DNA from: Naegleria gruberi
Lineage: Eukaryota
Reading direction: 5' to 3' (one strand)
Assembly (NCBI GenBank): GCA_000004985.1
Contig: GG738845.1
DNA: 64,000 nucleotides
The position numbers and the translations under genes were made by a program. Position 1 is the stretch's first letter. The number at the start of each line of letters is the position of its first letter. Below, in pieces: positions 2,696 to 42,795 of this stretch. Under the pieces are notes generated by a model. The model was not told the origin of the DNA, did no database searches, and saw only the letters and a list, made by a program, of their open reading frames with translations.

Positions 2696-4679
2696 ATGAG
2701 AGAAGTTGTAACGCTGCAATTTGGTCATTATTCAAACTTTATTGGCTCACACTATTGGAACACACAAAAGAATGTATTGGAAGGATACAAGCCATTGATG
2801 AATAATTATCACATTCCAAATTTTCGTCCTGAAGTGGAAACAAGTGTCTTATTCCGAGAGACTAGAGGTGGTTATTCGATTCATTCAGAAGATGAAGCAC
2901 TAGAATATTTTCCTAGATTGTTAGTTTTTGATTTGAAGGGATCAAGAGGATCTTTGAGAAAGAATAATGCTGATCCTTATCAATCAGTTGATCAAGAATT
3001 TATCAATCAACATAAGAATATTACTCGTTGGGATAAATTGGAAGTGATGAAGACTTTTGAAAATACTAAACAAACTAAATTTACAAAACAACAATTAAGC
3101 AAGAATGAAAATACACGTGAATTGGTATTGAGTGACGATGAAAGTGAAGTCAGTCAATCACAAGAACCACAACAAAAGAAACAAAAGAAGGAATATAGTA
3201 GAATAGATATTGAACAGGATTTGGAGGAAAATGTCTCGTTATGGAGTGATTATCTTCAAGTGGATTTTCATGACAAGACTATTTGTGAACCTCTCCAGTT
3301 CCAATTTGAAGCAGAAAGTTTCAACGCTCTTAATTATGAATCCTCTGAAGGATTTTCCATGAATAGTGCCTTTGATGTTTATTCTACAGGAAGAGAAGTT
3401 TTACATGGTAATTTTAGTTTGGATCAATACGATGATTTTTCTTCTCAATTAATGTACTTTGTTGAGGAATGTGATAGCTTGGATGGTTTCCAAATTTTCA
3501 CAGATTCTTTCAATGCTTGGGGATTGACCTGTACTGAATTTATTGAAATGATCAAAGATGAAGTTGGAACCAAAGTGCCAATTATTGCCTATGCATCATC
3601 TCCATATATTCCATCTTTTGCTAGTGACACTGATAGATCCAAGTTTATTTTGAATACTTGTCTCACTTATTGTGACCTCTATGAAAATGCAAGCTTGTTT
3701 ATTCCAAACAATGCTCAACAATTAGAATCTATGGCTTCTAGTCCATTCTTCTCTGGATTTGATGTAAGTATAAGTTTTAATACTTTTAGATTCACAATAA
3801 TTCCATCAATTTAATTTGAAATATTCGAAATGTTAATAGCCAAGAAAAATGTATCACTCTGCTTCAGTTATGGCTGCTGCTTTTGATTCCGTCTCTCTTT
3901 CCTATCGTCTCAATGGCCAAGGTAATAAGCAAATTGGCATGCACACATTCGCACAAGAAATGACTCCTCTTTCCTCACTTAAAATTGCCAATATTAATTT
4001 GGCATTCCCATATGCTTACACAATGGGATCATCTCTATATCAAAATTTGAGAGGTCTCAATCCAATTCATCAAAATAATCTCTTCACACCACTCCTCTCT
4101 AATATTGCCTCTGGATATGACAGTGAATCTCCATTTGCTCACTCTCTCATTCTCAGAGGTTTGAATCCAGTTAGTGTTCCACTCTATCACGATTCCGATC
4201 TCAAGGAATTGGATCAATTACGTATGAAGAAATACGGAGGTGAAGAATTGGAAAAGTACAGACACCTCATTGGATGCAATTCTCATAGTGAAATGATTGA
4301 AAATTATATGGGACAAACAAGAAGTTACTCCAAACATGCCTTCCATGTAAATCAAGCATTCCAAACACCATATACCTTCCCAAGAATCCTCAATAATGAA
4401 ACACTTTCAGATAAGGGCTTTTTGAGAGAGGCAGGCGCAAATGCAGCAGAACGTGTTGAAAGTTGTCCACTTGGAGCTTACTTGTCGAATAGTAGAAACT
4501 TTGTCCAACACATCAAGGAACTCAATGAATACTTTGACATGCTCAACGGAGGTACTTCTGCTCTATTTTCTGGTGGATTGACTGGTGCCACAACTTTCAG
4601 ATACAAAATTTCCAAAGATGAAATGAAAGAATACAAGGAAGTCATGGGCAGAATGTTTGATAATTATGAAGAATCATAA
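2696..4679 (+). CDS. Misato/DML1 family protein (tubulin/FtsZ-like, mitochondrial distribution). Two exons joined by a 76-nt GTAAGT..TAATAG intron at about 3764..3839.
   Basis: The N-terminus MREVVTLQFGHYSNFIGSHYWN matches the misato signature (MREV/IxTLQxGxxxNxxGxHxW). An internal FVEECDSLDGFQI block matches misato YVEECDYLQGFQI. Track ORF 2696..3814 ends just after a GAT|GTAAGT donor. The downstream ORF 3849..4679 is in frame from a TAATAG|CCAAGAAAAATG acceptor. Confidence 0.75.
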
Positions 4680-7902: not shown

Positions 7903-7951
7903 GGCTGGCTAATACTATCAATAAATTGAATTTATGTTCTAAGGACAAAAT

Positions 7952-8042
7952 TGATGAGTGTGGGATTTGAACCCACGCCCTTGCGGAACACGGTATTAAT
8001 CATACCTTAACGTGTCGTCTTAGACCACTCGACCAACTCACC
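7952..8042 (-). tRNA. tRNA-Leu (anticodon AAG, class II with long variable arm) containing an 11-nt intron 3' of the anticodon
   Basis: Reverse complement: GGTGAGT TG GTC GAGTGGTCTAA GAC G ACACG TTAAGG[TATGATTAATA]C CGTGT tCCGCAAGGGCG GTGGG TTCAAAT CCCAC ACTCATC A. The 7-bp acceptor stem has one G-U pair. The D-stem is 3 bp and the D-loop has GG. The anticodon stem is 5 bp (ACACG/CGTGT), with U33-A34-A35-G36-purine37. The T-arm is GTGGG/TTCAAAT/CCCAC and the discriminator is A73. 18 nt lie between the anticodon stem halves, which means a 7-nt loop plus an 11-nt intron at the canonical 37/38 position. Confidence 0.8.
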
Positions 8043-8170
8043 ATATGCATCACAAAAAACAAGCCATTTAGGATTAAATTAAAGAATTCAATTTAATGTA
8101 AGTGTGGAAGCAAAATTAACAAAAAACATTATGAAAATTTAAAAAGAATTCAAATTTACAAATAGTTAGC

Positions 8171-16268: not shown

Positions 16269-19200
16269 TTAGTTGTGAATAATTTTGAATTTGTAATTGA
16301 TGCTCGATTCATCATGGTTCACCTTTTCACAATAGCACAAGAATTTCAAGTGGTGACCCAGTACTAATTCCCTTGCTTGTTTGAAAGTTTCTGAGCCAGT
16401 GACTGGAAGTTTCTTATTTGTTGTTGCTCCTTTCTTGTAGGCAAATATTTGCTGAATAGCTCTTGTATCCAGAGTCAATGTTACATGCTTTCCAACCTTT
16501 ACTTGGAATAGGAGGTCATGATCTGGTTTGGTAAATTTATGATTGCAATGGCCACATATTTGATCTGTATCCACAAACCAGGTTGAATCTGAAGTAAGTT
16601 GTTTTTGACAATGTGGACAAACAGGAACTGTTGGACGATCTCCAATTTCTAAAATGTCTGAAATATATCCTTCCACATTTCCAACACTTTTCTCAAAGCA
16701 AGTAAACTCATAATTAATAGAATTGAGAATGGATTGTGATTGAATCTTTCTTCCATTTTTCTTTAAAAATCCTTCTTCTACTCTCAATCTGACGCTGTAT
16801 GGGAATTTCACATCACTTGCTTGTTCCAATCCACTACTAGTGGAAGGATAAATCATTGAAAATTTGTCTGCTATTAATTGAGTAGACTCGTGCATATCCT
16901 CAGTTCTTTTTACCAATATATTGTGAATAGTTACATTTGTTCTATTGCTACTAAAACCATATGCGACAGCCAATAGCATGGATGTTTCTAACAATAGACT
17001 ATCCAATCGTAAAATGATATTAGAATGTTTCTGTAATACATAAACGGAAAACTTAGTGGTATTATCATGATTATTTTCGGCTATATAAATAATCTTTCCC
17101 TCAATGTCACATCTGTGTACTCTCGAGCTATTTTCATCATTCACTACGTCTTCAACACCTCCATGAGATTGTTGAGTATCTCCAGAAATTGGTTGATCGA
17201 AATTATAATACAAGCTATGTTTGTAGGAAGAATGAGGAGCAATATTTTCAGGAATTGGATCTACACCAATGACGGAGCCCATACTGAAATTATCTTCTGG
17301 AGGAATAAATTTACAAGAGGTGTGTTGTTTGTTTGTGGTAAAGAAATATACAGGAATGAGAGGATTGGTAAATTCGCTTGAATTAGAATAATTACTCAAT
17401 TGGGAATCAGTTGTAAGATTATGTTCAGTGTGATACATTGGTGAAACAATGGAATATAATTCATCATTTGGTCCAATATAAATTCTATCCTTAAATGAAC
17501 AAACATCAAATTGGAAAATTTTGCCTTGAGAAATGTTAGGGTCAAATATTGATTTCCAATAATCATATTCATGACTACCTGAAGGGAGTAAAATTACACA
17601 AAGACTTCTTGATTTGGAACATTGAATGAGAACACTGTTGGACATGTTTGATTCATTTGCAAGTTGAGGAATTCTATTGTAAATCTCATTAAAAGAGCTT
17701 TCCAATGTTTGTCTAATATAATCATAACTCCAAACACGTTGTATTACTCCCTGAATGTTAACATAATAAGATGGGAAGAAGGCTGAATGAAGTTGTTTGT
17801 AAATGATTTCAAACTTCTTTGTGAAAGGACCATTTGAAATTCTGGAAATTAAATGATAATTTCTTTCATAATCCTGTTCACTTTGGGATGAAAAGTCAAT
17901 TCTTCTTCTTGGAGTGTTGATAATATTCTTATGTCTGACATGGGTTGGAGTTGATCTAATACCTTGGGAAGTTCTTGGAGGAGTTGAAGGTGTTGCATTA
18001 TCATCACCTGTCAAGTCCATATTATCCTCATTGGAATCTTTAGAAAGCATTGGGAATGTAAATTTTGACTCTAGTTGTTCAATATCTTGTTTCAACTCGT
18101 TAACATCTGAAGATTGAGAATTACATTTCATTTCAAAAACGTAGGATATTACAGGTCTTGGTCTGAAAATCCAATCACTATTTGAATCATGGGGATCGCT
18201 AGATGGTGTAATGTGGAATAAATTTGTTGCAATTTCAATAATACTTCCAGGTTCTAAATTCCACTTGTCTCTCATTTCTCTTAAGAGGAATACATCAAAG
18301 AAATCATTTTCTTCCAAATTTTTTTGAAGTATTTCATTATCGTGAGGTTGGGTAGGTCTTTTTAACATTTTACAAATACATAGAGACAGATTCGGATAAA
18401 TTTGTGGTGAAGAACTGAAAACTAGAATTTTCAAAACCATACTGTCTTTTGGGGAGTTAGGTTGTGATAAAGTCATACCAGAACCAATATTGGCAAATAC
18501 TTTTTCATTCAAGCATCCATTAACTGCTCTAATAAGTTTAGAAACAAATCTACCTGATGATTTTACAGTTAGAATCTTCTTTAAATGTTCCCATTGTGAA
18601 AAGAATTGATCAGTACTATTTCCTGATGATGACTGTTGAGAAAGAGAAACTGTACGTTCAGCCACTGGTGGTGCCTTTGATTTTCTGAGTTTATCTAACC
18701 AACTTTCTCCAACAACATTATTATCATTTACAGTGTTATTTTCAGTCATGACATCATCTTCAATATCCTCGTCAGCTACTACTTTGGATTTTCTGTTGGA
18801 GAAGAGTAAATTTTCAACCTCACTTTCTCTTGGATTTCCAACTTTTTTCTTAATTCCCTTTAGTCTAGTTTCCAAATCAAATCCATCTTCTCCTGATATA
18901 ACGATATTATTATTCTTTGGTGGGGATATTTGTTTAGGTTGTTGTGGTGGAGGAGCACTTTTTTGAATTTGTTGAGGGGTTGAATAATTAATGGCAGAAA
19001 CCATTTGACTGAATTGTTTGTCTCTATTATTCATTGTTGTAGTATCTTCCTCTTCACTATCAGTAACAATTAAATCATCAATATCAATTGTTGGTTTTGA
19101 AGATGTCCTATTATTCATCACTTGTTTTTGTTGTGTTAAATAAGTTGAAATGAGTGCAGAATTATTAAGTGTAGCTTGAGGTGCACTTGCAAATAGTGCT

Positions 19201-20204
19201 GCATTCACTCCACTCAATACAGCCATTGTTGGTACTGGAATAGTTGGATTTGTTTCTTCATCTGAAAAATCGTCAATATCGTCATCTTTTTCAATTTCCT
19301 TTGGTATATGATAGGATATTGAATTATTTTGAGATTTTCTTTTTTGAGTTGGTGTTTTGTGAGGTGTAGAACTATAATAGTGTGATGAAGATTTTCTTGT
19401 ACTGGCAGATGAATTATACGAGAAAGAAGGAGGAACAATAGTCTTCTCTAGAGATGGAATTATTCCTTTGTTCAATGGTTGTGACATTTGAGAAGATGTT
19501 GTAGATTTGGTTTGAGATTCCTCATCGTAATTCATATCATTATCCTCATCTGATGAAGAATAATAAATTCCTGAAATTTTTTCTGGAATTGATTTCTTTG
19601 TAATTTTTCTCTTTTTTGGTGAGGTTGATCCCTTCTTTTTCTTGTTAGATTTGTTGGATGATTTGTTTAGACTAAGTGAAACACTTGGTTCATCGAAATA
19701 TTTATCAAAATCATCGTCACTAATCACTTCATCCTCTACTACTTTGGAATTTTTCTTAGGTGTTGGTTGTTTCTTCTTTCCAATCGGTAAACTCATATTA
19801 ACTTCATCATCTTGACTTTCTCTCATAGAAGATGAGGAAGATTTCTTCTTATCAAAAACAGCAGACAAGACAGCATTGCTTTCCTCTGGACTCACATCAA
19901 TTCCAGTCTTGTTTGCATTATCTTCATTTTGTGAATCCTCATAGAATGATTGTGAATCTTGTTGTTGCTTTCCATAAATTTTGGAAAATTTTGTTGGTTT
20001 GTAAGTAATTTCTTCATCAGAATCCGAAGATGATTCTCCACGAAATTGTATTCCTCCACCTCTTCCAACAACATTATTTCCTCTAGGTATTTGTTTTGAA
20101 AGGAGTGCAAGCTGTTTTTGCTCTGCATTTTGTCCTCCAGAGAGTGGTGTCCTAATGGAAACCTTGTTAGTATTCAATGGTGCGTTATTTCTAACTTTCC
20201 ACAT
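16269..20204 (-). CDS. Large (1311 aa) protein with a long disordered S/K-rich N-terminal half and a C-terminal OB-fold plus C4 zinc ribbon resembling RPA70 DBD-C. A candidate ssDNA-binding factor.
   Basis: A single intron-free ORF. The C-terminal CPHCQKQLTSDSTWFVDTDQICGHCNHKF is followed by LLFQVKVGKHVTLTLDTRAIQQIF. This mirrors the RPA70 C-terminal pattern CxxC..(15-20)..CxxC followed by YxLxLxIxDxTG..xxxFxxxAxxL. Upstream blocks are beta-rich and OB-like. The functional call is inference only. Confidence 0.5.
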   Translation of the reverse strand: MWKVRNNAPLNTNKVSIRTPLSGGQNAEQKQLALLSKQIPRGNNVVGRGGGIQFRGESSSDSDEEITYKPTKFSKIYGKQQQDSQSFYEDSQNEDNANKTGIDVSPEESNAVLSAVFDKKKSSSSSMRESQDDEVNMSLPIGKKKQPTPKKNSKVVEDEVISDDDFDKYFDEPSVSLSLNKSSNKSNKKKKGSTSPKKRKITKKSIPEKISGIYYSSSDEDNDMNYDEESQTKSTTSSQMSQPLNKGIIPSLEKTIVPPSFSYNSSASTRKSSSHYYSSTPHKTPTQKRKSQNNSISYHIPKEIEKDDDIDDFSDEETNPTIPVPTMAVLSGVNAALFASAPQATLNNSALISTYLTQQKQVMNNRTSSKPTIDIDDLIVTDSEEEDTTTMNNRDKQFSQMVSAINYSTPQQIQKSAPPPQQPKQISPPKNNNIVISGEDGFDLETRLKGIKKKVGNPRESEVENLLFSNRKSKVVADEDIEDDVMTENNTVNDNNVVGESWLDKLRKSKAPPVAERTVSLSQQSSSGNSTDQFFSQWEHLKKILTVKSSGRFVSKLIRAVNGCLNEKVFANIGSGMTLSQPNSPKDSMVLKILVFSSSPQIYPNLSLCICKMLKRPTQPHDNEILQKNLEENDFFDVFLLREMRDKWNLEPGSIIEIATNLFHITPSSDPHDSNSDWIFRPRPVISYVFEMKCNSQSSDVNELKQDIEQLESKFTFPMLSKDSNEDNMDLTGDDNATPSTPPRTSQGIRSTPTHVRHKNIINTPRRRIDFSSQSEQDYERNYHLISRISNGPFTKKFEIIYKQLHSAFFPSYYVNIQGVIQRVWSYDYIRQTLESSFNEIYNRIPQLANESNMSNSVLIQCSKSRSLCVILLPSGSHEYDYWKSIFDPNISQGKIFQFDVCSFKDRIYIGPNDELYSIVSPMYHTEHNLTTDSQLSNYSNSSEFTNPLIPVYFFTTNKQHTSCKFIPPEDNFSMGSVIGVDPIPENIAPHSSYKHSLYYNFDQPISGDTQQSHGGVEDVVNDENSSRVHRCDIEGKIIYIAENNHDNTTKFSVYVLQKHSNIILRLDSLLLETSMLLAVAYGFSSNRTNVTIHNILVKRTEDMHESTQLIADKFSMIYPSTSSGLEQASDVKFPYSVRLRVEEGFLKKNGRKIQSQSILNSINYEFTCFEKSVGNVEGYISDILEIGDRPTVPVCPHCQKQLTSDSTWFVDTDQICGHCNHKFTKPDHDLLFQVKVGKHVTLTLDTRAIQQIFAYKKGATTNKKLPVTGSETFKQARELVLGHHLKFLCYCEKVNHDESSINYKFKIIHN

Positions 20205-21439
20205 TTTCCTAGGATTTATTTGATGATAATAGAAGGCAAAAAGTAGCCTAAAAAGTTGAATTTATATTATTTGATGATCAAAAATATTTAATTTTGTGTG
20301 ATGAAGTAAATGTATGATCTCTGTGGTTGTTGATTTTTTTTTAATGATGAAAATTTTTCAACTTGGGGCTGGAAAACATGTGTTTGAAAAATCCAGAAAA
20401 ACAAGGAATCTTAAATGACCAACAATATTTTACCAGATAAGAATCAATCATGACTGGCCAAATTATTCGAAATTTTAAACTTTTCTTCTTAAGGTGGCGG
20501 TAGGGTCTTCCAAAAATATTCCTTCAATGAAAAAAAAAATGTTTGCAATGAAATACAATTTTGCTCCTTTACATTCTCATTGAACAAGCAATTATAAGCC
20601 ATCTTCGATTCATCTTTTATTCTACTTGCCTGTTTGATGTCTAATACTCTTCAAGTTTTTATACATCAATTTTCTATCATCATCACAAATATTTAATTTT
20701 TGTTATTTATAATTTGAATGCAGGGTTACTGTGCCAGTTTCACCTAGTTTCACTCATCAGAGAATACACACGATCCAACTACAAGTTGTCTATCTAATGA
20801 ATTGGTTCCGAGATGTTTGCTAATGCTTTGATTGTGATTTTGAGCAAAGTTTTGGCTGTTTTGAAATAAGCAAACAACAAAATAATCACAAAAAAAATGA
20901 AAAGAGGGTTGTGTTTTGGTGTGGGAGTAAAATAAGTTGTTTTGTCACCAAGATTCTATAATGTAAAGAATGGATTTGTTGGTAAAGTTCCTATTCACCA
21001 CAAGGAACTGAATGGCACTATTTGTTGTCTACATTACAAGCAATTTATTGACAAATATTATGAAATGGAGAAAAAATTCACAAACTCAAACTTAGGAACA
21101 ATTCAAACAGTACAACAAAATACCTCTACTCCAAATCAATGTTATCATTCCATGTACATTCCGAAAAAGCTATTACAACTCTGGTACCTTCGACCAACAA
21201 GTGTACTAATAACAAGAAAGTTTGAATTGTGTTCATAAATGATTTTTTATTAAAATTACTAAATTTGCCATTTTGCCAATAATAGATATTCGAATATTTG
21301 TAAACCAACATTTGCACTTCCAATTAAAATAGGCGAACCGCCACCTTAATTCTTTCTTTCAATAAGAAACAATTAATATTATTTAACTGGAAATTGTTTA
21401 AAAAAAATGAGCAGTTTAGTTTTTAACTATGGTAATACT

Positions 21440-21552
21440 TTTGTCAATGTGCCTCCCCAACAACAAATGTTGCTACAATTAATTTGACTGGATTATTGTC
21501 GAGTATTCTTCCATCATCAACAACTTTACAAAATTCGTTAATTATGATCCGA
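21440..21552 (+). repeat. Degenerate, frameshifted copy of the 5' coding end of the TAF13-like gene (the second copy is at 37415..37530)
   Basis: 21409 aaaaaaaATGagcagttt...ccccaacaacaaatgttgctacaattaatttgactggattattgtcgagtattcttccatcatcaacaactttacaaaattcgttaattatgatccgaaccaac aligns with 37392 aaaaaaaATGagtcaatat..ccccaacaacaaaatgttgatacaagtaatttgactggattattgtcgagtattaataatcttccatcatcacaacaaacctttacaaaattcgttaattatgatccgagccaag. Identity is about 88% over roughly 115 nt with several 1-6 nt indels. The 21.4-kb copy hits a stop after 27 codons. Confidence 0.7.
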
Positions 21553-21622
21553 ACCAACACTCAAGCTGAACAACCGTCAACACGCACGAAGTTAGCTTTT
21601 GTGTATTAATATTATTACATTT

Positions 21623-22189
21623 TTATTGGATGATCGTAAAAACTTCAATTTCAGTAACTTTGAAAGTATTAGTGCCTGCCAAGTAGGTGTTAGCTTTAAA
21701 GCTTTGAGGTTCCATTCCACAAGGTAATTCATAGGTTGTACCAAAATTGGAAAAAGACTTTGAGTTCCTATTACAATCATCAGCAATATATATGTCATGA
21801 TTTCCAAAGGTTGGAAGATAGTGTGGATGATTGTAAATGGCTTGTTGTTTTTGGTCTTGTTTGACATTGAATTTTGTAATATGATAACTTCCATTCAATT
21901 TTTCAAGCTTGAAAAGAAATGCTGCATCGTCACAAGCAAACTCATAATTTGATTTCCAATTTTGAGATGAAAAACCTCCAAATATTTTTCCAAATTCGGA
22001 CTTGATAATTGTTAAGGTTGCTCCTTGATTATCACATTTTTCATGGAAGATTTCAGAACTGAATCCATCTTCACTTGCTCTGAATAATAATTTTGGAGTT
22101 TGTTGGCTCTTCGTGAAGGTAGATAATTCGAGACCAACATTTTCAATGGAAGAAAGAATTTGTGAGGAAACAAAGTGGTTTGGTTGCAT
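21623..22189 (-). CDS. TLDc-domain protein (TBC/LysM-associated domain, as in OXR1/NCOA7/TBC1D24), 188 aa
   Basis: KLLFRASEDGFSSEIFHEKCDNQGATLTIIKSEFGKIFGGFSSQNWKS...AAFLFKL matches the TLDc core (LLYRxSxDGFsaxxFHxKCDgxGpTLtlIKtxxGxIFGGYtsxxW...FLFsL). Confidence 0.6.
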   Translation of the reverse strand: MQPNHFVSSQILSSIENVGLELSTFTKSQQTPKLLFRASEDGFSSEIFHEKCDNQGATLTIIKSEFGKIFGGFSSQNWKSNYEFACDDAAFLFKLEKLNGSYHITKFNVKQDQKQQAIYNHPHYLPTFGNHDIYIADDCNRNSKSFSNFGTTYELPCGMEPQSFKANTYLAGTNTFKVTEIEVFTIIQ

Positions 22190-22315
22190 TTTTTATTGAA
22201 AATATTTTGTTGAAGGAAAAAGCTCAATTAAGGGAATAATGGAACAAAAAAAACTCAACAAGTTCGATTAGCATTGTTCTTCTTAAACCAGAAATTAGCA
22301 AGTAAATAGTGAAGG

Positions 22316-23553
22316 ATGGTTTTGAATCAAACTCATGAACATGGTGATTTAACTGACAAGAACAAGCTATTGAATCAGGAATCACCAACTAGTTATAATC
22401 CTTCTCCTAATAGTTATTATTCCAACCCTTCGGACCCATATTTACATCAGCAAGGGAGCTTGGAAAATGTAAGTTGAAAGAGTTGATTAATATCTTTCTC
22501 TGACTATTATAATAGGTTAAACAACACAATAGCAATGATGAGGAAAAGATATGTCGTTGTTGTCATGGAGTTTTAACAAGTAATGATGATTATATTTCTC
22601 CGTGCAAATGTACAGGTTCCATGAAGTTTGTTCATCGTTATTGTTTGGTATGTTTTTCAATTATCTCATATGTTAACTAGGCTTAGGATCAATGGAGAAC
22701 AGTGAGTCCAAAAGCAACATCTTTCTATCAGTGTGATATTTGCTCACATCCTTATGATATCAAAGATGTGGATGAGAATGGTAGGGTTTTAGATGAAACA
22801 GAAGTGAAAGAACAAGGTTGTGGTTATAAACCTAAATCAATACTCAAGTTTGGCACATTAGTAACTCTTGACTTTTCAATCATTCTAATTGTTTGGCAAG
22901 TATTGGTATTATTATGTGCTGGTTTCTTTGCTTTGTGTGATTATGATTATGGATTGAGAGCTAAATTGTTTGGTCTGGATATGAATATATATCTGGTTAC
23001 CTATATGTAAGTATATTAGAAATTTGAGGAAATGGATTAATAGTTCAATAATAGTTGTGGATTGGTAATGTTCTTCTTCATTATGGGCATGTTAGGATTG
23101 TGCTGTACTGGAATTGTTATCTTGAACAAGATGATGAATGACACCTTCTGTGGGAATTGTTTAACTAATGACCACTATTACTCTCATAATACATACCCAT
23201 ACTATGGCAGAAGGCACTCCAGACGTTCAGCTTTGTACCATTGGTACTGTTTTTGGCCATCCTTGTATGGTCGTCCAATATATGGTAGTTCTCCACATTG
23301 TTTCCCATTCGGTTGCTTTAATTGTGGAACTGGTTTTTCTGGAAATTGTGGAAAATGTGGTGATTGTAAAGGAGAAGGTGTATTGATTGTTCTTGTTATC
23401 ATTGTTCTTGCAGTGGCTATTGTAGGATTAGTGTTTGGTATGATTCTTATGGGATTGCTAGGCTATAGAATATTTTCTAGAAGAATTTCCGTTTTGAAAA
23501 AGAAAGACCAAGCTAAGTATCAACAAATTCAAAATTACTGGCCTCTTCCTTAA
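22316..23553 (+). CDS. MARCH-type RING-CH (C4HC3) membrane E3 ubiquitin ligase. Four exons with three short introns at about 22469..22515 (47 nt), 22648..22686 (39 nt) and 23007..23054 (48 nt).
   Basis: Exon 2 encodes ICRCCHGVLTSNDDYISPCKCTGSMKFVHRYCL, and exon 3 continues DQWRTV..YQCDICSHPY. Together this is the RING-CH signature (CxxC..PCxCxGS..VHxxCLxxW..CxxC). At least three hydrophobic helices follow in exons 3-4. All three introns are GTAAGT/GTATGT...(A)ATAG or CTTAG, and all splices preserve frame. Confidence 0.7.
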
Positions 23554-23639
23554 ATCCTTAAATTTCATCAATAGCATAAATAATAGACATTATAATCTCT
23601 TATTACTAGTTAAAATTAGTTATTAGAGTAAAGATGATA

Positions 23640-24470
23640 TTAAACATGTGACGTTATAATTAACATGTTCGATATATAGGTTTGAATTTTAACAACTTCA
23701 ATAACTTCAGATTCCTCAATTTAAGTACCACTTCCAACATGGAAGTGTGCACATGCATGCTAGTTGCACTGATGGTAATTATTGGCGATACATGTTGATA
23801 TGCAATATCAGAAATAATGATGGATGTGTTCACATGCTCGTTACACAACCAAATTTGTTGAAACTTAGTGAGAAGTAAATGCATGCAGTGCTAAAACTAT
23901 ATGGCAATGAATTGTGAATGTAGACATGTGAGACATGTTCCAACTCGTGAGATTAACATGTTGATAAGGCAAATGCTCGGTTGTTGATTAGTTAGATCTG
24001 CCTTAGCAAAGCGCCACAGTCATTACCTTTAGCGTGTGGTAACCACATCCGTATTCATCATTCCTATTACTGTTGATCTTATTAATATTCCTACATTAGT
24101 GTTTGTATCCGAGAGTTCAAAAAGCAACCTCAACTTGTTGTGAGGGAAAATATGGCTGCATGTGGTAGCGAACAGAACCATAATGGATTTGTACGGGGTA
24201 ATCTCTTCACTACAAATTAGTACAAATAATTGAGGAATTGTGTGTGCACAAAGATCAATTTTGCTCCATGCTCCTCCACTAGCTCTTGCTGTATGCTGTT
24301 TGACTTTGTTCAAAACTTGGACACATGATTCTAATAGAAGCTAACCACCAAGTTGATCCTTTTCTTTTTGACATTTTCTCACAACAAAAGCATATCAATC
24401 AAGGGAATGTTCTCACCAATCATACCATTATTTTAAACTTTTATTACTGTAAGTACATGGGAGTGAGAAA
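23640..24470. promoter_or_regulatory. Non-coding region upstream of the giant EGF-repeat gene, strongly enriched for (A)CATG(T) motifs. A candidate cis-regulatory cluster.
   Basis: At least 11 ACATG occurrences in about 830 nt: aacatgtgacg, taacatgttcg, caacatgg, cacatgcatgc, tacatgttgata, cacatgctcg, atgcatgcag, agacatgtgagacatgttcc, taacatgttgataagg, acacatgatt, tacatggg. The longer word (T)AACATGTTGATA is repeated at about 23790 and 23957. Roughly one occurrence would be expected by chance. Confidence 0.25.
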
Positions 24471-24524
24471 AAAACACGTTCTTGTGCTCGGCCAAATTTA
24501 ACCCTTACATTCTATTTAAGGGAG

Positions 24525-27500
24525 ATGAAAAACGTTGTTTCCACCGCGAACTACAAATTTCGTAGGTACAAAATGAACTTTTTACTGAAAAATTTCCAAA
24601 TGAGGAATGATACCACAGTGTTTTTACAATATTCTGTTGTGGTGTGCGCTTTAAGAGGCTGCTATCCATGTGAAAGTTGCAAAGATTCGAAACAAAAAAA
24701 CAACAACATGAGGATAAGAAATTATTGCTTCATTGTAATTGCCTTACTGCTACTTTGTTCAGGGGTGATTTTGGTGCGAGGTTTGTCATGCTCAAAAGAA
24801 GAAGATTGTGCTGATTCTTCAGGTTCTTGTATCAATGGAAAATGTGAGTGTTGGAATAACCATAAGACAGGTGATTATTGTGATGTATGCATTAGAGGTT
24901 ACGTTGGTGCCAATTGTGAAGATTGTGCCGCTGGTTTTACAAAAGACCCACAAGATGGGTCAACATGCTTGGCCAATTGTAATCCAGCTTGTTATAGAGG
25001 TGATTGTGTTGGCACTAATCTTTGTGAATGCAATACAGGTTGGGATGGAGCCACATGCAATGTTTGTGCTAAAGGATATAGTGGTACAGATGCTTTTGGC
25101 AATCTTTTATGCGACGTAAAAACCTGTGTTCCTGGATGTGGTTATCATGGAAAATGTGATGTTCCTCCAAGTACTTGTAAGTGTGATTATGGTTGGGAAG
25201 GGGCTGTTTGTAATATCCCTCAATGTTATGGAAACTATGCCTGTGGTAATAACTCATATTGTTCATCCGCTTTCGAATGCTCATGTGTTGAAGGTTATAA
25301 CCAAACTGCAGCTGGTTGTGTGCCAAATGTTTATAATTGTCCTGTACCATGTGGAGATCATATGAAATGTAACTCTTCATTACTTTGTGCATGTGAACAA
25401 GGTTATGATAGTATCAATGGTGCTTGTTACAAAACATGTCCTTCTAATAGTGTTAGATCTGGAACTGATTGTGTTTGTGTTGCAGGATATTCCTTAAATA
25501 ATGGTGTATGTGAAAAAGAATGTAAAGACTGTACCAATGGAGTTTGCTCCAATGGAGTTTGTACATGTAATGATGGTTTTGAAAAGAAGGGAGAGTATTG
25601 TTACAAGCCATGTTCAGTATTTACTGGAACAGTTGGTGCTACTTGTGCTATTGGTGGTATTTGTAAAGCTAATGGTCCATTCTTCTCCTGTTCGTGTTCA
25701 GAATCTGGTAAAGAAGAGTTTAATGGAGTTTGCAGAACACCTTGCAATCCTGCTTGTGGTGAAAATACTGAATGTAATGAGAATTCAATTTGTCAATGCA
25801 AATCAACACTCGATCAAGATAAATATTCATTCGATAATGCAACCAGAAAGTGTTATCCAAATTGTACCAAATGCAAATTGGAACATCAAACATGTAACAA
25901 TCCAGATGATGCAAATTGTTTCTGTGACAGAGTGAGAGGTTATTTACCAATTTATGATTCCAATGGAGTTGTCATTTCCTGTGAAAAACCATGCAATCCT
26001 GCTTGTATGGGATATTCACACTGTGTTAATGGTGATCATTGTGAATGTGATACTGGTTATACCAATTATGGAAATGAATATGGTTGTGTGAAAACCTGCA
26101 CATCAGCTTGTATTGGTTTGAGTTGGTGTAGTGACGCTATTTGTTATTGTCCTTCTGGATATCAACAACATAGTAATTCAACAAGTATTTGGTGTGAACC
26201 TGTTTGTTCAACTCCATGTGGTGCTAACATGGAATGTAGTGCTCCAGACAATTGTACTTGTAAAGCTGGATATGAAGTGATTGGAAGTGAATGTATCAAA
26301 TTATGTCCTTCTAATAGTGTTAGATCTGGAACTGATTGTGTTTGTGTTGCAGGATATTCTTTAAATAATGGTGTATGTGAAAAAGAATGTTCTCCAGAAT
26401 GTACCAATGGAGTTTGCTCCAATGGAGTTTGTACATGTAATGATGGTTTTGAAAAGAAGGGAGCTTACTGTTACAAGCCATGTTCAGGATTTACTGGAAC
26501 AGTTGGTGCTCCTTGTGCTGCTGGTGGTATTTGTAAAGCTAATGGTCCATTCTTCTCTTGTTCGTGTTCAGAATCTGGTAAAGAAGAGTTTAATGGAGTT
26601 TGCAGAACACCTTGCAATCCTGCTTGTGGTGAAAATGCTGAATGTAATGAGAATTCAATTTGTCAATGTAAATCAAATCTCGATCAAGCTAAATACTCAT
26701 TCGATAATGCAACCAGAAAGTGTTATCCAAATTGTACTAAATGCAAATTGGAACATCAAACATGTAACAATCCAGATGATGCAAATTGTTTCTGTGACAG
26801 AGTTAGAGGTTATTTACCAATTTATGATTCCAATGGTGTTGTCATTTCCTGTGAAAAACCATGTAATCCTGCTTGTATGGGATATTCACACTGTGTTAAT
26901 GGTGATCATTGTGAATGTGATACTGGTTATACTGATTATGGAAATGAATATGGTTGCGTGAAAACCTGCACATCAGCTTGTATTGGTTTGAGTTGGTGTA
27001 GTGACGCTATTTGTTATTGTCCTTCTGGATATCAACAACATAGTAATTCAACAAGTATTTGGTGTGAACCTGTTTGCTCCACTCCATGTGGTATTAATAA
27101 GCAATGTAGTGCTCCAGAAGAGTGTTCATGCAAGATTGGCTTTGATGACGTGAAAGAGGTGTGTGTTGAATCTTGCCAAGTAGGTTACTCGAGAGCCGAA
27201 GATGATGATAAGTGCTATGCCGATTGTAAAGTCTGTGGAGCTCACTCTTCTTGCTATCACTCTGAATGCGTTTGTGATTTGGGTTATCAAGTAGATGCTA
27301 GAGGTGATTGTTCTTCAGTTGTCCATGACAATAGCACAGGGAATACTACTGCAGGTAATAGTTCTACTTCTGGTGGCTGTGATCCAATATGTAATCCAAC
27401 AACTAGTTCCTGTCTGGATGGAGCTTGTATTTGTAAAGACAATTTGGAAATGATTGGTGGTGAGTGCGTTCATGTTTGTTCTTTAGATTGTGGTATTCAT

Positions 27501-35612: not shown

Positions 35613-35981
35613 ATGTCACAAACAATAGATAAGGCAACAGCCTTAGAAAAAATCCCTCGCGATTATTCAACCTATTCCAAACTCTCTGCTGAATTAAAGT
35701 TGGACGTTGATGTTGTCAGAATTACCTTGCAAAAGACTGGCAGTTATTGTATTGGTCAAATACCAATGGTAGTGTTTGAAAATGATCGCTCATTGGCCTT
35801 CCTTGCCCTCTCAAAAGGTTTTTCTCTTGATAAATTACCAGCCATCTATAAAAGTGATAAGGAAATGGTCTTGATGGATTATAAGAAAAGATATTATGGT
35901 CCAATTCATGCTAACATGGACCTTTGGAATGATAAGGATTTTCTTGATCAATTACTTGTTTTAAATCCGAGCCTTGAATGA
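35613..35981 (+). CDS. DUF4116-repeat protein, N-terminal segment. Possibly the first part of a disrupted longer gene.
   Basis: It encodes 122 aa ending ..NDKDFLDQLLVLNPSLE. DKD..L and NPxLL are DUF4116-like repeat elements. The frame closes at TGA 35979. Confidence 0.4.
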   Translation: MSQTIDKATALEKIPRDYSTYSKLSAELKLDVDVVRITLQKTGSYCIGQIPMVVFENDRSLAFLALSKGFSLDKLPAIYKSDKEMVLMDYKKRYYGPIHANMDLWNDKDFLDQLLVLNPSLE

Positions 35982-36065
35982 TTTATCCAGATAAAAATCC
36001 ACTGGCAGTCGACGGAATCCACTCACATCTGACAAAATCCTTTCAATCCAGCGTTGGCTGGATAA

Positions 36066-37181
36066 CACGGATACATATTACCCTCCCTTGAATATTTCCC
36101 CGAATCATTAAGGGATGACAAGGACGTTGTCACGAAACTTATTTCAAAGAATGGAAGAAAAATTGAATTTGCTTCCGATCGATTGAAGAATGATGATGAA
36201 TTGATTTTGTTGGCTTCATCAAATTCTTCAATCTTTGATTATACAAAACCTAGAGAATTATCAAAGGAACTTTGTTTGGAAATTATTCACAGACAAGGTA
36301 AGGCAAATAGAGATATTCCACCTTATTTAAAGATGGATAGAGATATTGTAAAGGCTCATTTAACTTACTTTACTAATTATTCCTATTTTACTAATGTTGA
36401 TAGGTGTTTCACTGCTGATGAAGAGATGGTTACACTTGTTCTTTCCAGAGATGTTGAACAATGGAAATACATTGATGAGTCATTGAAGAATAATGAAAAA
36501 TTCTTGGCTAAGATTTTGACTATTATTCCTTCCATTTACAAGTTTTTCCCTTTGAGCAAGCGATGCATTAAGGAAGTTGCCTTAAAAGCAATGAAATATG
36601 GTAAAAACTTATGCTTGGCAAGTGAAGCGCTCAAGAATGATAAGGATGTTGTGATGGAAGCTGTTTCAAATTCAGGCCAGTCTATTAGATATGCATCGAA
36701 GGAACTGAGACAAGATAAAAAAGTGATTGAAGCAGCTTTGAAGAATGACCCTTATGGAGTATCATACATCCTTTCAAAACTAACTGAAGAAGAAAGATTG
36801 ATTGGAACATGGAGATTCCAATTCAAGGTCGGTGAACATTCCCAATACAATCACGATCTCATGATTTTTGATTTAGTTTTGAATGCTGATTATTCATACC
36901 TTTTATTCAATCAAGATATCTCTGAAGATTACGATGCTGGGTATCCAAGAACAAGAGACAGAAAAACCACTGGTAAATGGAAAATTGGAATCTATAACAG
37001 TGTTGATGCTCTCTATTTGGATGAAAATGCTTTAATGTCCATTGCCATGTTAAATGAGTGTGCTAATTATCACAACAGAAATTGTGAACAGTTTAATGAA
37101 GAGGCTGAGAGGCATACGTACTCTCATGATAGAAAGACTTTCTCATTTGCAGATGGTGTTTGGTCTGAAAGACTTTTTTAG
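36066..37181 (+). CDS. DUF4116-repeat protein. The reading frame opens at 36066 without an ATG. It is either a continuation of 35613..35981 across a disrupted region, or it starts at the internal Met near 36333.
   Basis: It reads ..LEYFPESLRDDKDVVTKLISKNGRKIEFASDRLKNDDELILLASS.. and later KNDKDVVMEAVSNSGQSIRYASKELRQDKKVIEAALKNDPYGVSYI. These are classic DUF4116 units (ALxYASxELRNDKEVVLAAVKQNGxAL). The track start at 36183 is a TTG. It shares the frame of the upstream ORF but is separated from it by three stops (35979, 36030, 36063). Confidence 0.5.
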   Translation, partial: HGYILPSLEYFPESLRDDKDVVTKLISKNGRKIEFASDRLKNDDELILLASSNSSIFDYTKPRELSKELCLEIIHRQGKANRDIPPYLKMDRDIVKAHLTYFTNYSYFTNVDRCFTADEEMVTLVLSRDVEQWKYIDESLKNNEKFLAKILTIIPSIYKFFPLSKRCIKEVALKAMKYGKNLCLASEALKNDKDVVMEAVSNSGQSIRYASKELRQDKKVIEAALKNDPYGVSYILSKLTEEERLIGTWRFQFKVGEHSQYNHDLMIFDLVLNADYSYLLFNQDISEDYDAGYPRTRDRKTTGKWKIGIYNSVDALYLDENALMSIAMLNECANYHNRNCEQFNEEAERHTYSHDRKTFSFADGVWSERLF

Positions 37182-37391
37182 TTGTGTTTACTACATAACC
37201 GACATGTTATAAAAACTAACAATTGTTTCTGAAATATATTTCACAATCCAATACAATTCTGTAGCTTGATCGTTAACAATATAGATGGCCATATCAATGC
37301 ATATCTACTTATGAAGGAATCAGAACTTATATCCTGAATATGTTTCGACATTGTTATCATGGCTCTAAAACAATAATAATTATCAAAAAAA

Positions 37392-38207
37392 ATGAGTCAA
37401 TATAACTTTTATGCTGGACCACCCCAACAACAAAATGTTGATACAAGTAATTTGACTGGATTATTGTCGAGTATTAATAATCTTCCATCATCACAACAAA
37501 CCTTTACAAAATTCGTTAATTATGATCCGAGCCAAGATGGAACGAGTGTTGGTTCGGAAGGAGCAGAATCTATGGGACCACCAACAACAAAGAAAGGAAC
37601 TACAAGGAAGAGGACATCTAAAGGAGGCTCTTCTTCATCACAGCCTAAAAAGAAAAAAAAGACAACTACAAAATCAAAAAAGAAGCAAGCAGCTGCCGAT
37701 GTGGACGATGACGACGATGACGACGATATGCCAGAAGTAAATACAAAGAAAAAACAAGATGTTGACGATGATGATGATATGCCGGAATCAAATCCGAATG
37801 GTGATGAATTTTCTGGAGAGGACGATAATGATGATGACAATGATGAGGACGATGATAATGACGATGAGGATGATGATACACCAAAAAAGAAATCAAAGAG
37901 GAAATCAAAAGGAGAGCCAAAAGAAGGCTCAGGAAGAAAAAAGACTGAATTGGCTCCACATATTAGACAAATGATGTATGGATTTGGTGATGTGAGGAAT
38001 CCTCTCCCAGAGACAGTGACACTCATGGAAGAATTAGTGCGCGAATATGTTCATGAAATTGTTTCGGAAGCTCTTAAAATCTCAAAGAAGGGTAGATTAA
38101 ATCCAGAAGATTTAGTCTTCCTGATTAGACACGATTCTAAGAAATATCTCAGAGTGGACGAATTATTGAGAAAATATCAAGAAATTAAGAAAGCTAGGGA
38201 TTTGTAA
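37392..38207 (+). CDS. TAF13: TFIID subunit TAF13 homolog with an unusual N-terminal extension of about 190 aa. The extension has a Q/S-rich leader, K-rich and poly-D/E tracts.
   Basis: The C-terminal histone-fold region HIRQMMYGFGDVRNPLPETVTLMEELVREYVHEIVSEALKISKKGRLNPEDLVFLIRHDSKKYLRVDELLRKYQEIKKARDL aligns with human TAF13 (LRCMMYGFGDDQNPYTESVDILEDLVIEFITEMTHKAMSIGRQGRVQVEDIVFLIRKDPRKFARVKDLLTMNEELKRARK). Confidence 0.7.
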   Translation: MSQYNFYAGPPQQQNVDTSNLTGLLSSINNLPSSQQTFTKFVNYDPSQDGTSVGSEGAESMGPPTTKKGTTRKRTSKGGSSSSQPKKKKKTTTKSKKKQAAADVDDDDDDDDMPEVNTKKKQDVDDDDDMPESNPNGDEFSGEDDNDDDNDEDDDNDDEDDDTPKKKSKRKSKGEPKEGSGRKKTELAPHIRQMMYGFGDVRNPLPETVTLMEELVREYVHEIVSEALKISKKGRLNPEDLVFLIRHDSKKYLRVDELLRKYQEIKKARDL

Positions 38208-39317: not shown

Positions 39318-40961
39318 ATGAAAATTCAAAATTTTGCGATCATTGTGTTGACAACATTGTTGTTGTGTTGTTTTGTGTTTATTTGTTTCTTGATAAATGG
39401 ATATTCGAAATGTTTGAATCACCAGACAGGCATAATTAATCATGATGTGCACAAGTTGGCACTGATTGATTCCGATAGGGTGAGAGAAATTCCTCTCATC
39501 AACAAGAAGGTACCTCCTTCAGCTGTTATTCTCCCCAGAAATTTGCATCAACAGCTCCAACCAGTTCTTTCTATACCTCCCACAAAAATGACAAAGGAAC
39601 TCGAAATTGAACAAGAGGAAAAAACAATGGATGATTCGGAAAATATCATTGTTGCAAATCCAAATAAGTTTCCACCCAAACCATTACCAGACGAACCAAC
39701 ATTGCAAGGTAATCCCAACGAAACCAGTAATCCATTATGTGTAGATAAACGAAAGAGAGATTACAAACAGGTACCAATCAGAGTATCAGGACTTTTTAAT
39801 GGGGAATTTAGAGATTGTAGCATTAGGTGTGTTGGAGATGGCTATCCAAATCAACCAAGTTTACCTGATGTGTATGTGGGACGAGATGCTCCTCCTGATG
39901 GCTGTCCAAACTCTTTTTCCTTCATTTCTACAATGGAAAATCAACCAATGTTCAAGACCAATATCCACAGTTTAGTAGGTACGACTAATTTAAAAACTGA
40001 CGTTCCAGTTCAATATTTTAGTTGGGCTGAATATAGTTACATGAGCAAACCAAAACCAAAAACAGCAACTGCAATGATGGCGGTTTTCATTTCAAATTGT
40101 GGACCACCAAAACGATTGGAAATCATCAAGGAATTGGAGGAACACGGAGTTACAATCCATTCATATGGTAAATGTTTGCACAACACACAAATGCCAGATA
40201 CAAGAGATGGTGACTATTTGGGAATTAAAACTCGGATTACCTCCACTTACAAATTCGTATTTGCAGCTGAAAATTCAGAAACTGACGATTATGTCACTGA
40301 GAAACTTTTTGGAACATTTGATTCTGGAAGTGTTCCAGTTTATTTGGGAGCTCCAAATGTTAAAAAGTTTGCCCCAAGTGAAAAATCCGTCATTTCAGTT
40401 TCTGATTTTGCGACCATTAAGGAATTAGCAGAATATTTGAAAATGTTAGATAAGGATGATGTAAAATACAATGAATATTTGAAATGGAAGGAAGAAGGAC
40501 CATCACATGATTTTATTGCCATGATGGATATGGCTATTATACACTCTTCATGCAGATTGTGCATCAAAGTTGCAGATCACTACAGAAAGATTTACAACAA
40601 CCAGGTTGGAAATCAAATAATTCCAAAAGATAAACTTGGAAAGGACAGCATTATTGTGAGCGTTAGACCAAGAGGAGAATTCTACATGAAACAAGTTGAA
40701 CTATTACCAAATGAAATGAGTCTCAAACATCTCAAGAGAAAGATACAGAAATTGTATGCTGATAATCCTCTTCCTGTCGGATCTATTCACTCCATTTACA
40801 GATTATGGGACAATAACAAGATACCAATCAAGGATGAAGACTTTAGAAATGGTATTATTCACAATAGTATTGAGTTGGAGGTTATATTCCTTTATCCTTA
40901 TCATCCAGGAAGAGGAAAATTCAATGAGTGGCAACAAACTCACAAATTCTACCTTCATTAA
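39318..40961 (+). CDS. Alpha-1,3/4-fucosyltransferase (CAZy GT10), type II membrane protein. Paralog A of a tandem pair.
   Basis: An N-terminal signal-anchor (IIVLTTLLLCCFVFICFLINGY). The catalytic region has the GT10 motifs FVFAAENSETDDYVTEKLF (FxFENS...DYxTEK) and VPVYLGAP. A conserved extra C-terminal region of about 120 aa is shared with paralog B. Confidence 0.75.
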   Translation: MKIQNFAIIVLTTLLLCCFVFICFLINGYSKCLNHQTGIINHDVHKLALIDSDRVREIPLINKKVPPSAVILPRNLHQQLQPVLSIPPTKMTKELEIEQEEKTMDDSENIIVANPNKFPPKPLPDEPTLQGNPNETSNPLCVDKRKRDYKQVPIRVSGLFNGEFRDCSIRCVGDGYPNQPSLPDVYVGRDAPPDGCPNSFSFISTMENQPMFKTNIHSLVGTTNLKTDVPVQYFSWAEYSYMSKPKPKTATAMMAVFISNCGPPKRLEIIKELEEHGVTIHSYGKCLHNTQMPDTRDGDYLGIKTRITSTYKFVFAAENSETDDYVTEKLFGTFDSGSVPVYLGAPNVKKFAPSEKSVISVSDFATIKELAEYLKMLDKDDVKYNEYLKWKEEGPSHDFIAMMDMAIIHSSCRLCIKVADHYRKIYNNQVGNQIIPKDKLGKDSIIVSVRPRGEFYMKQVELLPNEMSLKHLKRKIQKLYADNPLPVGSIHSIYRLWDNNKIPIKDEDFRNGIIHNSIELEVIFLYPYHPGRGKFNEWQQTHKFYLH

Positions 40962-41088: not shown

Positions 41089-42795
41089 ATGAAAACTCTA
41101 CAAATTATAACAATAGTACAGACGGCCCTGTTATTGTGCTGCTTTGTTGTTATAACCATCCTAATTAACAAATATTCTCTCCTTGTAAAGGAAATTAATA
41201 GTTCAAAATTACATCAATATTCTTCCCTAAATCTAAATTTGATTAAGCTTACATCACCACCCGAGACAACAATAACATCTTCCATTGTGATAAAACCACA
41301 AAAAACCTCATCACAACAACCTCCGATTAGAGAGCAATCGCCCATTGCACCATCGTCACCTGTACTCACACCTACAACAAAAGTTAATGATAAGGAGGAT
41401 CCAATAGACAAGACTCGAACCAAACTTACGACTTTGAACCTCAGTAGGAGGGAAAAACTATTGAGGGATAAGCAAAATGGATCAAACAAATCGGTCAGTC
41501 ACAACACTGAAGTGACATCCATTGAAAATCAAGACAAGCAGGTATATCAGATACCTCTTAACGGTGGAAGGGAATTAGCCAATTGCCCAGATAACGAGAA
41601 TAGAGATTATAACGAAAATCCAATTAAGGTCAGAGGTAAATTTACAGGCGAGTTGACCAATTGTCCAATAAGATGTGTTGGAGAGGCAAACCCACCAGAT
41701 GTGTTTTCTGGGAGAGATTCACCTAGTGGTGGTTGTCCACACGCATTTTCGTATCAATTTACCATGGAAAATATTAAATTGAGAAAGGCATCCACCCATA
41801 GTTTAATAGGTACAACTGATTTATCTTCAGATGTTCCAGTTCAATATTTTAGCTGGGCTGAATATAGTTATATGGACCCACCAAAGAATAAGACAGCAAC
41901 TGCAATGATGGCGGTTTTCATTTCAAATTGTGGACCACCAAAACGATTGAATATCATCAAGGAATTGGAGGAACATGGAGTTACAATCCATTCATATGGT
42001 AAATGTTTGCACAACACACAAATGCCAGATACAAGAGATGGTGACTATTTGGGCATCAAGACAAGATTAACTTCGACATACAAATTCGTATTTGCAGCTG
42101 AAAATTCAGAAACTGACGATTATGTCACTGAAAAATTGTTCGGAACATTTGACTCTGGAAGTGTTCCAGTTTATTTGGGAGCTCCAAATGTTAAAAAATT
42201 CTTACCACACGAGAAGTCAATTATTTCAGTTTCTGATTTTGCAACCATTAAGGAATTAGCAGAATATTTGAAAATGTTAGATAAGGATGATGAAAAATAC
42301 AATGAATATTTGAAATGGAAGGAAGAAGGACCATCACATGATTTTATTGCCATGATGGATCTGTCAATTTTGCACTCTTCATGCAGATTGTGCATAAAGG
42401 TGGCTGACTATCACAGAAAGATTTACAACAACCAAATCGGTCACCAGCTCATTCCTAAGGAAGACCTCAAAGAAGGTAGTATAGTGGTGAATGTTAGACC
42501 AAGAGGAGAATTCTACATGAGACAGATCGAATTATTACCAAATGAAATGAGTCTAAGACAGCTCAAAAAAAAGATACAAACACTCTATGCCAAAGAAGAA
42601 GCAACACTGGGATCTATTTACTCCATTTACAGATTATGGGATAAGAACAAGACACCAATTCAGGACAAGGATATGAGAAATGGTGTAATTTACAACAATG
42701 TAGATCTGGAAATCATCTTCCTCTATCCATATCACAAAGGTAGAGGAAAATTCAATGAGTGGCAACAAACTCACAACACCTTTAACCTACATTAA
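41089..42795 (+). CDS. Alpha-1,3/4-fucosyltransferase (CAZy GT10), paralog B. Its P/S/T-rich stem is longer than in A.
   Basis: The same motifs as paralog A. The nucleotide sequence of the catalytic core is nearly identical to paralog A, for example acagcaactgcaatgatggcggttttcatttcaaattgtggaccaccaaaacgattg in both. The track start at 41032 is a GTG, so I re-called the start to ATG 41089 (MKTLQIITIVQTALLLCCFVVITILINKY), which parallels the paralog A start. Confidence 0.75.
   Translation: MKTLQIITIVQTALLLCCFVVITILINKYSLLVKEINSSKLHQYSSLNLNLIKLTSPPETTITSSIVIKPQKTSSQQPPIREQSPIAPSSPVLTPTTKVNDKEDPIDKTRTKLTTLNLSRREKLLRDKQNGSNKSVSHNTEVTSIENQDKQVYQIPLNGGRELANCPDNENRDYNENPIKVRGKFTGELTNCPIRCVGEANPPDVFSGRDSPSGGCPHAFSYQFTMENIKLRKASTHSLIGTTDLSSDVPVQYFSWAEYSYMDPPKNKTATAMMAVFISNCGPPKRLNIIKELEEHGVTIHSYGKCLHNTQMPDTRDGDYLGIKTRLTSTYKFVFAAENSETDDYVTEKLFGTFDSGSVPVYLGAPNVKKFLPHEKSIISVSDFATIKELAEYLKMLDKDDEKYNEYLKWKEEGPSHDFIAMMDLSILHSSCRLCIKVADYHRKIYNNQIGHQLIPKEDLKEGSIVVNVRPRGEFYMRQIELLPNEMSLRQLKKKIQTLYAKEEATLGSIYSIYRLWDKNKTPIQDKDMRNGVIYNNVDLEIIFLYPYHKGRGKFNEWQQTHNTFNLH

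Follow-up and report, generated by a model that had tools for sequence, protein, structure and literature searches.

The described systems that come closest to the locus examined here are those that leave a piece of a gene at a distance from its intact parent. Unprocessed (duplicated) pseudogene fragments, conventional segmental duplications and processed (retro)pseudogenes are among them, and Pack-MULEs and Helitron transduplication are known for transposon-mediated capture of gene fragments. Templated insertions ('filler DNA') made during double-strand-break repair measure tens to a few hundred bp and take their sequence from a donor elsewhere in the genome. For TTAA-targeting transposons of the piggyBac superfamily, the terminal inverted repeats usually start with CCC/CCY. 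PiggyBac-class repeats have been reported in Naegleria lovaniensis (PMC6125883, Table 3). The gene that concerns us encodes TAF13, which is normally a simple histone-fold-only protein (PMC6672047).

We examined a 64,000-nucleotide stretch of Naegleria gruberi contig GG738845.1 (hereafter the window), in which a short piece of the TAF13 5′ coding region recurs 16 kb upstream of the gene, on the same chromosome and in the same orientation. This piece is very probably a non-functional, decaying partial duplicate of TAF13, that is, an unprocessed pseudogene fragment. Like other members of that class it is a DNA-level copy on the parent's chromosome that is truncated, frameshifted, interrupted by a premature stop and neutral between strains; homology to the parent, disabling lesions (deletions of 1 and 4 nt and a TGA) and neutral evolution between strains were all found. 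It differs from a conventional segmental duplication in being very short (~110-160 bp), in having no flanking homology and in containing the 5′ coding end only. Its size, its distant donor, its sharp boundaries and its lack of poly(A), terminal repeats or target-site duplication are shared with filler DNA, a likeness that is a mechanistic analogy only. Pack-MULE and Helitron transduplication would also leave a short gene fragment away from its parent and near a transposon-like element, but this fragment lies outside the inverted repeats of the neighbouring element and is present in a strain without it. A processed (retro)pseudogene would likewise be a dispersed, coding-only copy, and as the parent is intronless the absence of introns is uninformative; however, the copy is a 5′ fragment and is not 3′-anchored. 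With no A-tract at the 3′ junction and no flanking direct repeats, a processed retropseudogene was ruled out.

A first-pass annotation of this DNA, made from the letters alone, had reported that about 115 nt of the TAF13 leader recur at about 88% identity with several indels, and the alignments bear this out. When the intergenic region 20205-21622 was compared with the 64-kb window by BLASTN, a single strong non-self match was returned, joining 21452..21557 (+) to 37419..37535 (+) at 87.2% identity over 117 columns with 11 gap columns (E=7e-34). The same pair was recovered by self-BLAST of the whole window. The position first given for the copy, 21440..21552, was a few bases off, and the features concerned are as follows:

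21452..21557, plus strand: core of the TAF13-derived fragment, homologous to codons 10-48 (BLASTN E=7e-34, alignments, exact blocks)
37419..37535, plus strand: parent segment within intact TAF13, codons 10-48, peptide PPQQQNVDTSNLTGLLSSINNLPSSQQTFTKFVNYDPSQ
37392..38207, plus strand: intact TAF13 gene in a single exon, coding for 271 aa with the histone fold at aa 189-269 (Pfam PF02269 E=2.4e-25, PDB match, orthologue P0001)

If gaps are ignored, the core has 4 substitutions in 106 aligned nt relative to TAF13 (~96% identity), together with three deletions of 1, 6 and 4 nt. In the alignment, these leave a net frameshift, and the conceptual peptide of the fragment is spread across three frames. 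Exact blocks common to both copies measure 13, 28, 12 and 29 nt, the 28- and 29-nt blocks being the longest. Only codons ~10-48 of the 271 in TAF13 are contained in the fragment, and on the 3′ side homology is lost sharply after CCAA, with CACTCAAGC following directly. BLASTN and TBLASTX against the window found no further parts of TAF13, and no other window sequence, in the 1.4-kb gap that holds the fragment, and the leader was found nowhere else in the window by BLASTN, TBLASTX or self-BLAST. An exact search of JGI metagenome contigs with a 28-mer from the fragment gave 0 matches. Demonstrable homology is limited to the ~106-nt core.

It had been considered at the outset that the shared segment might turn out to be a common low-complexity, microsatellite-like sequence. 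This is not so, as the segment has two copies in the window and a 3-mer entropy at the 58th percentile among random windows of 117 nt; its 12-mers are confined to the fragment and TAF13 within the window, two trivial ones excepted. Self-BLAST of the 64 kb found three repeats in all, and the fragment/TAF13 pair is the only short dispersed one. The two remaining repeats are both tandem: an internal repeat of ~820 nt in the 2689-aa REJ/EGF-domain gene (25430-26248 and 26297-27118, 95.5% identical), and adjacent GT10 fucosyltransferase paralogues (39863-40961 and 41694-42795, 82% identical over 1.1 kb).

The identity of the parent gene is clear from its histone fold, which matches Pfam PF02269 (TFIID-18kDa) with 88.8 bits (E=2.4e-25) and has human TAF13 as its best PDB match (E=2.6e-23, vs ~5e-10 for SPT3). 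There is one TAF13-type histone fold and no second one, and the layout of the protein is a conserved leader, then a K-rich/acidic extension, then the histone fold. The only strong TAF13 homologue is a 252-aa metagenomic protein, P0001, with 73% identity in the histone fold. Its N-terminus carries the same leader motif (VDTSNLSGLLGNIPSQTQFVNYDPNNDDASVGSE vs VDTSNLTGLLSSINNLPSSQQTFTKFVNYDPSQDGTSVGSE), in which VDTSNL[ST]GLL..I..PS..T.FVNYDP..D..SVGSE is kept, and the leader is followed by K-rich and acidic stretches as in N. gruberi TAF13. The contigs with P0001 show a non-syntenic neighbourhood, Tfb4-TAF13-CysRS, and because its gene neighbourhood differs P0001 is a fairly distant relative. Since this distant orthologue has both the leader and the same extension, the leader is an old, selected and ancestral part of TAF13, and its ancestry and conservation there set the direction of copying as from TAF13 to the fragment.

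To look for the leader in other proteins, TAF13 aa 1-64 were searched with HMMER against 1.84 billion protein representatives, and two matches were returned, P0003 and P0004. P0003 (60 aa) was rejected as a separate leader protein, being the N-terminus of the sister-strain TAF13 fused to a translated Illumina adapter, and P0004 was rejected as a low-complexity repeat protein. The sister-strain contig L004 (Logan) ends at 1839-1862 in the Illumina adapter AGATCGGAAGAGCGTCGTGTAGG, and the P0003 C-terminus, …SVGDRKSVV, is an artefact in a public protein collection. The leader was found in no protein besides TAF13 among these 1.84 billion representatives, a protein search to which unannotated N. 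gruberi genes are invisible, and a search with the full-length TAF13 protein returned TAF13 orthologues only. These results do not support the earlier suggestion that the leader is a mobile or exon-shuffled module captured by TAF13, as P0001 has the leader and HMMER finds TAF13 alone; nor does a mobile module seem to be the cause of the N-terminal extension of TAF13, as the same leader and extension stand in the distant orthologue. The N. gruberi TAF13 extension is lineage-specific yet conserved in a relative, and no capture event is needed to explain it. The 271-aa TAF13 itself was absent from a 15-billion-protein collection and was not returned by homology search, and the N. gruberi proteome is present there; TAF13 is probably missing from the NEG-M annotation and the N. 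gruberi protein set.

A comparison between strains was made with two contigs from run ERR1078381 (PRJEB11402), which represents a closely related strain that is ~98-99% identical. Contig L004 covers the DUF4116-TAF13 region at 95.5-98.6% identity, and contig L005 covers window 19013-25303 at 97.9-98.9%. In L005 the fragment is found at the same locus, 66 nt beyond the TLDc stop. As this assembly is independent, the fragment is not an assembly artefact, and since both strains carry it at the same place the duplication predates the strain split. Three substitutions and three deletions relative to TAF13 are common to the fragments of both strains, and from the three common deletions it follows that the frame was already broken before the split. 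Later divergence between the two fragments comprises five indel events (3, 2, 7, 2 and 11 nt) and several substitutions. The open reading frame of the sister-strain fragment reads MSSLVFNYFTFVNASPTTNAINCYN before its stop, vs MSSLVFNYGNTFVNVPPQQQMLLQLI in the window, with the premature stop at a different point. Differences between the strains were counted for four kinds of sequence:

Fragment, 21400-21557: 5 substitutions in 153 nt; 4 indel events
Other local intergenic DNA: 10 substitutions in 1721 nt; 10 indel events
Flanking coding sequences: 0-0.6% substitutions; 1 indel event in total (REJ-gene CDS)
First 160 nt of TAF13, 37392-37551: 1 synonymous change, upstream of the parent segment; no indels

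The excess of substitutions in the fragment over other local intergenic DNA is significant (Fisher p=0.005), and its indel density is ~4 times that of the same DNA (p=0.018). Both strains retain the 28-nt block unbroken; in the sister strain the 29-nt block is already interrupted. Because it has indels that are not multiples of three, its stop differs, and its substitution and indel rates are raised while the TAF13 5′ coding sequence is near-unchanged, the fragment evolves without constraint. The first-pass annotation had offered a duplication leaving a dead 5′ gene fragment as one of its two readings, and this is the one that agrees with the data: the copy is truncated and frameshifted, has indels that are not multiples of three, changes faster than local intergenic DNA and does not preserve its open reading frame.

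Some other places within the two contigs also vary between the strains. The spacer upstream of TAF13 (37182-37391) has 4.4% substitutions and 8 indel events with 106 gap nt, which makes it far more variable than most intergenic regions (0.4-0.8%) and similar to the fragment. A local hotspot lies between the TTAA site and the A-run of the fragment (21350-21399, 50 nt), where 6 of 42 aligned nt are substituted (14%) and 2 indels occur. Inside the DUF4116-repeat gene, 114 nt (35972-36085) are present in one strain and absent from the other; this difference is bounded by the direct repeat CCTTGAAT and is therefore a change in repeat-unit copy number, not an intron.

On the 5′ side of the core the evidence for homology is of a different kind, and it concerns the following features:

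21400..21411, plus strand: AAAAAAAATGAG, generic N. gruberi translation-start context (5 window occurrences, others at ORF starts)
21407..21487, plus strand: residual 26-codon ORF, MSSLVFNYGNTFVNVPPQQQMLLQLI, closed by a frameshift-induced TGA
21412..21451, plus strand: ATG-to-core spacer, 40 nt vs 22 nt in TAF13; indel hotspot between strains (shuffle test, strain comparison)
21558..21622, plus strand: 65-nt tail, probably TLDc 3′ flank, between the end of homology and the TLDc stop (sharp homology loss; 11-nt strain indel)

The same start-codon context had been noted ahead of both the copy and TAF13, and the 12-mer AAAAAAAATGAG is indeed literally identical at 21400-21411 and 37385-37396. 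With that said, it occurs 5 times in the window vs 0.17 expected, the three further sites (2696, 7684 and 10700) are likewise at ORF starts, and an A-run stands ahead of the ATG in most long ORFs of the window. As all five copies are at ORF starts and an A-run before the ATG is the rule, AAAAAAAATGAG is a generic start context of this genome and gives no specific evidence of homology. Between the ATG and the core, the 40 nt of the copy and the 22 nt of TAF13 show similarity at chance level (p~0.4, shuffle test), and neither this stretch nor the 60 nt upstream of the A-run resembles TAF13 more closely than shuffled controls do (p = 0.08-0.4). Over 47 nt, the spacer 21412..21451 differs between strains by two substitutions and two indel events. 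AAAAAAAATGAG at 21400, 45 nt upstream of the core, shares the frame of the core's first part, and since a good in-frame start lies there a start codon was likely once part of the unit. The ORF that opens at 21407 has 26 codons, with TGA as codon 27, in keeping with the frameshifted copy that was first described as stopping after 27 codons. Its first ~13 codons stay in frame in both strains (one 3-nt indel), which over so very few sites is weakly compatible with a tiny ORF.

The fragment lies between two genes on the minus strand and beside a larger insertion:

16269..20204, minus strand: 1311-aa ORF, no Pfam domain, start facing the intergenic region
20489..20492: left TTAA target-site duplication of the 853-bp element (single TTAA at the sister-strain empty site)
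20493..21345: 853-bp element, bounded by 9-bp terminal inverted repeats GGTGGCGGT/ACCGCCACC and separate from the duplication (sister strain without element)
21346..21349: right TTAA target-site duplication of the 853-bp element (single TTAA at the sister-strain empty site)
21623..22189, minus strand: TLDc-domain gene NAEGRDRAFT_61569, XP_002683582.1 (Pfam PF07534; 100% match to N. gruberi protein)

The fragment is antisense to the TLDc gene and 66 nt from its stop codon. The gap between the flanking minus-strand ORFs, 20205-21622, measures 1418 nt, and the 1.4-kb intergenic space (20204-21623) in which the fragment was first placed is thus real, but most of it is a strain-specific, 853-bp transposon-like insertion that is unrelated to the fragment. 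The inverted repeats of this element are perfect, 9 bp long and abut both TTAAs, and in the sister strain the empty site is a single TTAA between the same flanks (L005 3960-3963). The 853-bp segment bears the signature left when a non-autonomous, TTAA-targeting (piggyBac-like) transposon inserts or is precisely excised, and it resembles a non-autonomous element of piggyBac type for which N. gruberi strains are polymorphic. The TTAA duplication, the terminal inverted repeats and the presence/absence polymorphism with a clean single-TTAA empty site are as in the piggyBac superfamily; unlike in that superfamily, the repeats are just 9 bp and start with GGT, and there is no transposase ORF. An internal 98-aa ORF had no homologue in a protein search and no Pfam match. 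No second copy of the element was found in the window, and a 23-mer from the element end had 0 exact matches in JGI metagenome contigs. The element is independent of the fragment, because the fragment is outside it and is present in the strain without it. A transposon-captured fragment was accordingly ruled out, with the element at 20493-21345, the fragment starting at 21400 and the sister strain having the fragment only. Directly adjoining the TTAA site on its left, the sister strain carries a nearly perfect, AT-rich palindrome of ~78 nt, AAGTTTAAAATTTCGAATTTATATATAATAAT...ATTATTATATATAAATTCGAAATTTTAAACTT (L005 ~3966-4047, minus-strand reading), of which window 20455-20482 retains only the right arm; this palindrome may be a foldback/MITE remnant or a hairpin-prone indel hotspot.

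The surroundings of the fragment were also scanned for structural signals. In a search for repeats, the fragment proved to be flanked neither by inverted repeats nor by a target-site duplication; only a weak, 74% AT-rich inverted pair turned up, which was rejected because of its overlap with the TLDc stop codon. When the two strands of the fragment were folded, no RNA-structure signal emerged (z = +0.4 and +0.5). There was no Rfam or tRNA match near the fragment, and the scans, aimed at retrotransposon targeting or ncRNA, gave only a tRNA at 7952-8042. This tRNA gene is placed by ARAGORN at 7951-8043 on the minus strand (93 nt, no definite anticodon, probably intron-containing) and matches Rfam RF00005 with 47 bits.

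A decaying duplicate has to be weighed against other readings of the same locus. It is unlikely that the locus is instead an older paralogue, or a separate small gene with its own start codon, in which a recent ectopic gene conversion from TAF13 homogenised the ~106-nt core and nothing else. This would account for a core with ~96% identity beside a non-alignable stretch after the ATG, and for a genuine-looking start context in frame with the core; there is also a faint similarity of the conceptual peptide, NYGNTFVNVPPQQQ vs QY--NFYAGPPQQQ (FFNY in P0001), which is not statistically supported. However, gene conversion needs two events instead of one, and neither BLASTN nor TBLASTX found a further coding trace, of the histone fold or otherwise, up- or downstream. 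Between strains, indels form a hotspot behind the ATG, so scrambling by indels is sufficient to make this stretch non-alignable, and the hotspot alone can explain the loss of alignability. That TAF13 and the 21.4-kb locus each acquired the leader separately, as a mobile or exon-shuffled module, is given a very low probability. The copy is short, covers no more than the N-terminal leader and has a transposon-like element ~55 nt away, as such a module might, but the presence of the leader in P0001 makes it far older than the duplication, and no other protein among the 1.84 billion representatives has it. Furthermore, the TTAA element has no fragment inside, the sister strain carries the fragment but lacks the element, and the fragment is not surrounded by inverted repeats or a target-site duplication.

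Function is the other side of the question. The fragment could be active as RNA, either as a trans natural antisense or as a source of siRNA by way of the TLDc 3′ UTR or read-through, or it could be a 26-codon micropeptide gene, and we regard all of this as highly unlikely. Geometry and orientation do fit, with the fragment antisense to TLDc and 66 nt beyond its stop. An antisense transcript would have ~106 nt complementary to the TAF13 mRNA 5′ coding region, with perfect blocks of 28 and 29 nt, lengths that suffice for targeting by small RNAs; neither strain has lost the 28-nt block, and the start context is optimal. Against this, the fragment decays faster than the surrounding intergenic DNA, its 29-nt block is broken in the sister strain, its ORF sequence is not conserved and there is no excess of RNA structure. 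The specific form in which the fragment, transcribed in the TLDc 3′ UTR or read-through, would be a trans-acting antisense or siRNA precursor against the TAF13 mRNA 5′ coding region is slightly less probable again. If it were true, it would couple a subunit of a general transcription factor to the expression of an unrelated gene in an organism with RNAi machinery. Finally, in an AT-rich genome with a Q/S/N-rich encoded peptide one might think of an assembly artefact, of a microsatellite or of Q/S-rich, low-complexity coding sequences that are alike by chance, but with E=7e-34, normal complexity, no further copies in the window and an independent assembly from another sample that has the fragment at the same locus, the probability of this is negligible.

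Under the decaying-duplicate reading that we prefer, ~110-160 bp of TAF13, certainly codons 10-48 and possibly everything from the start codon, was copied at the DNA level before the split of the two N. gruberi-like strains. The copy lies in the 3′ flank of the TLDc gene, on the chromosome of its parent, 16 kb upstream of it and with unchanged orientation. As for mechanism, the likeliest would be repair of a double-strand break that left a short, ectopically templated patch, or else a larger duplication that was afterwards trimmed by deletion. We infer that the copied piece included the start codon and that indels subsequently scrambled the sequence behind the ATG. After the split the copy has drifted neutrally, collecting frameshifting indels and substitutions, with nothing conserved encoded in it.

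In itself, the locus adds one more short pseudogene fragment and carries little biological weight; such relics are rare in this compact protist genome, with only one in the 64 kb. The by-products of the analysis are the recognition of the TAF13 leader as a conserved, lineage-specific motif, a TAF13 annotation gap and a strain-polymorphic 853-bp element. The fragment also serves as a locally neutral yardstick: its rate of change between strains, like that of the spacer upstream of TAF13, is ~5 times that of other intergenic DNA, which suggests that most N. gruberi intergenic sequence is constrained.
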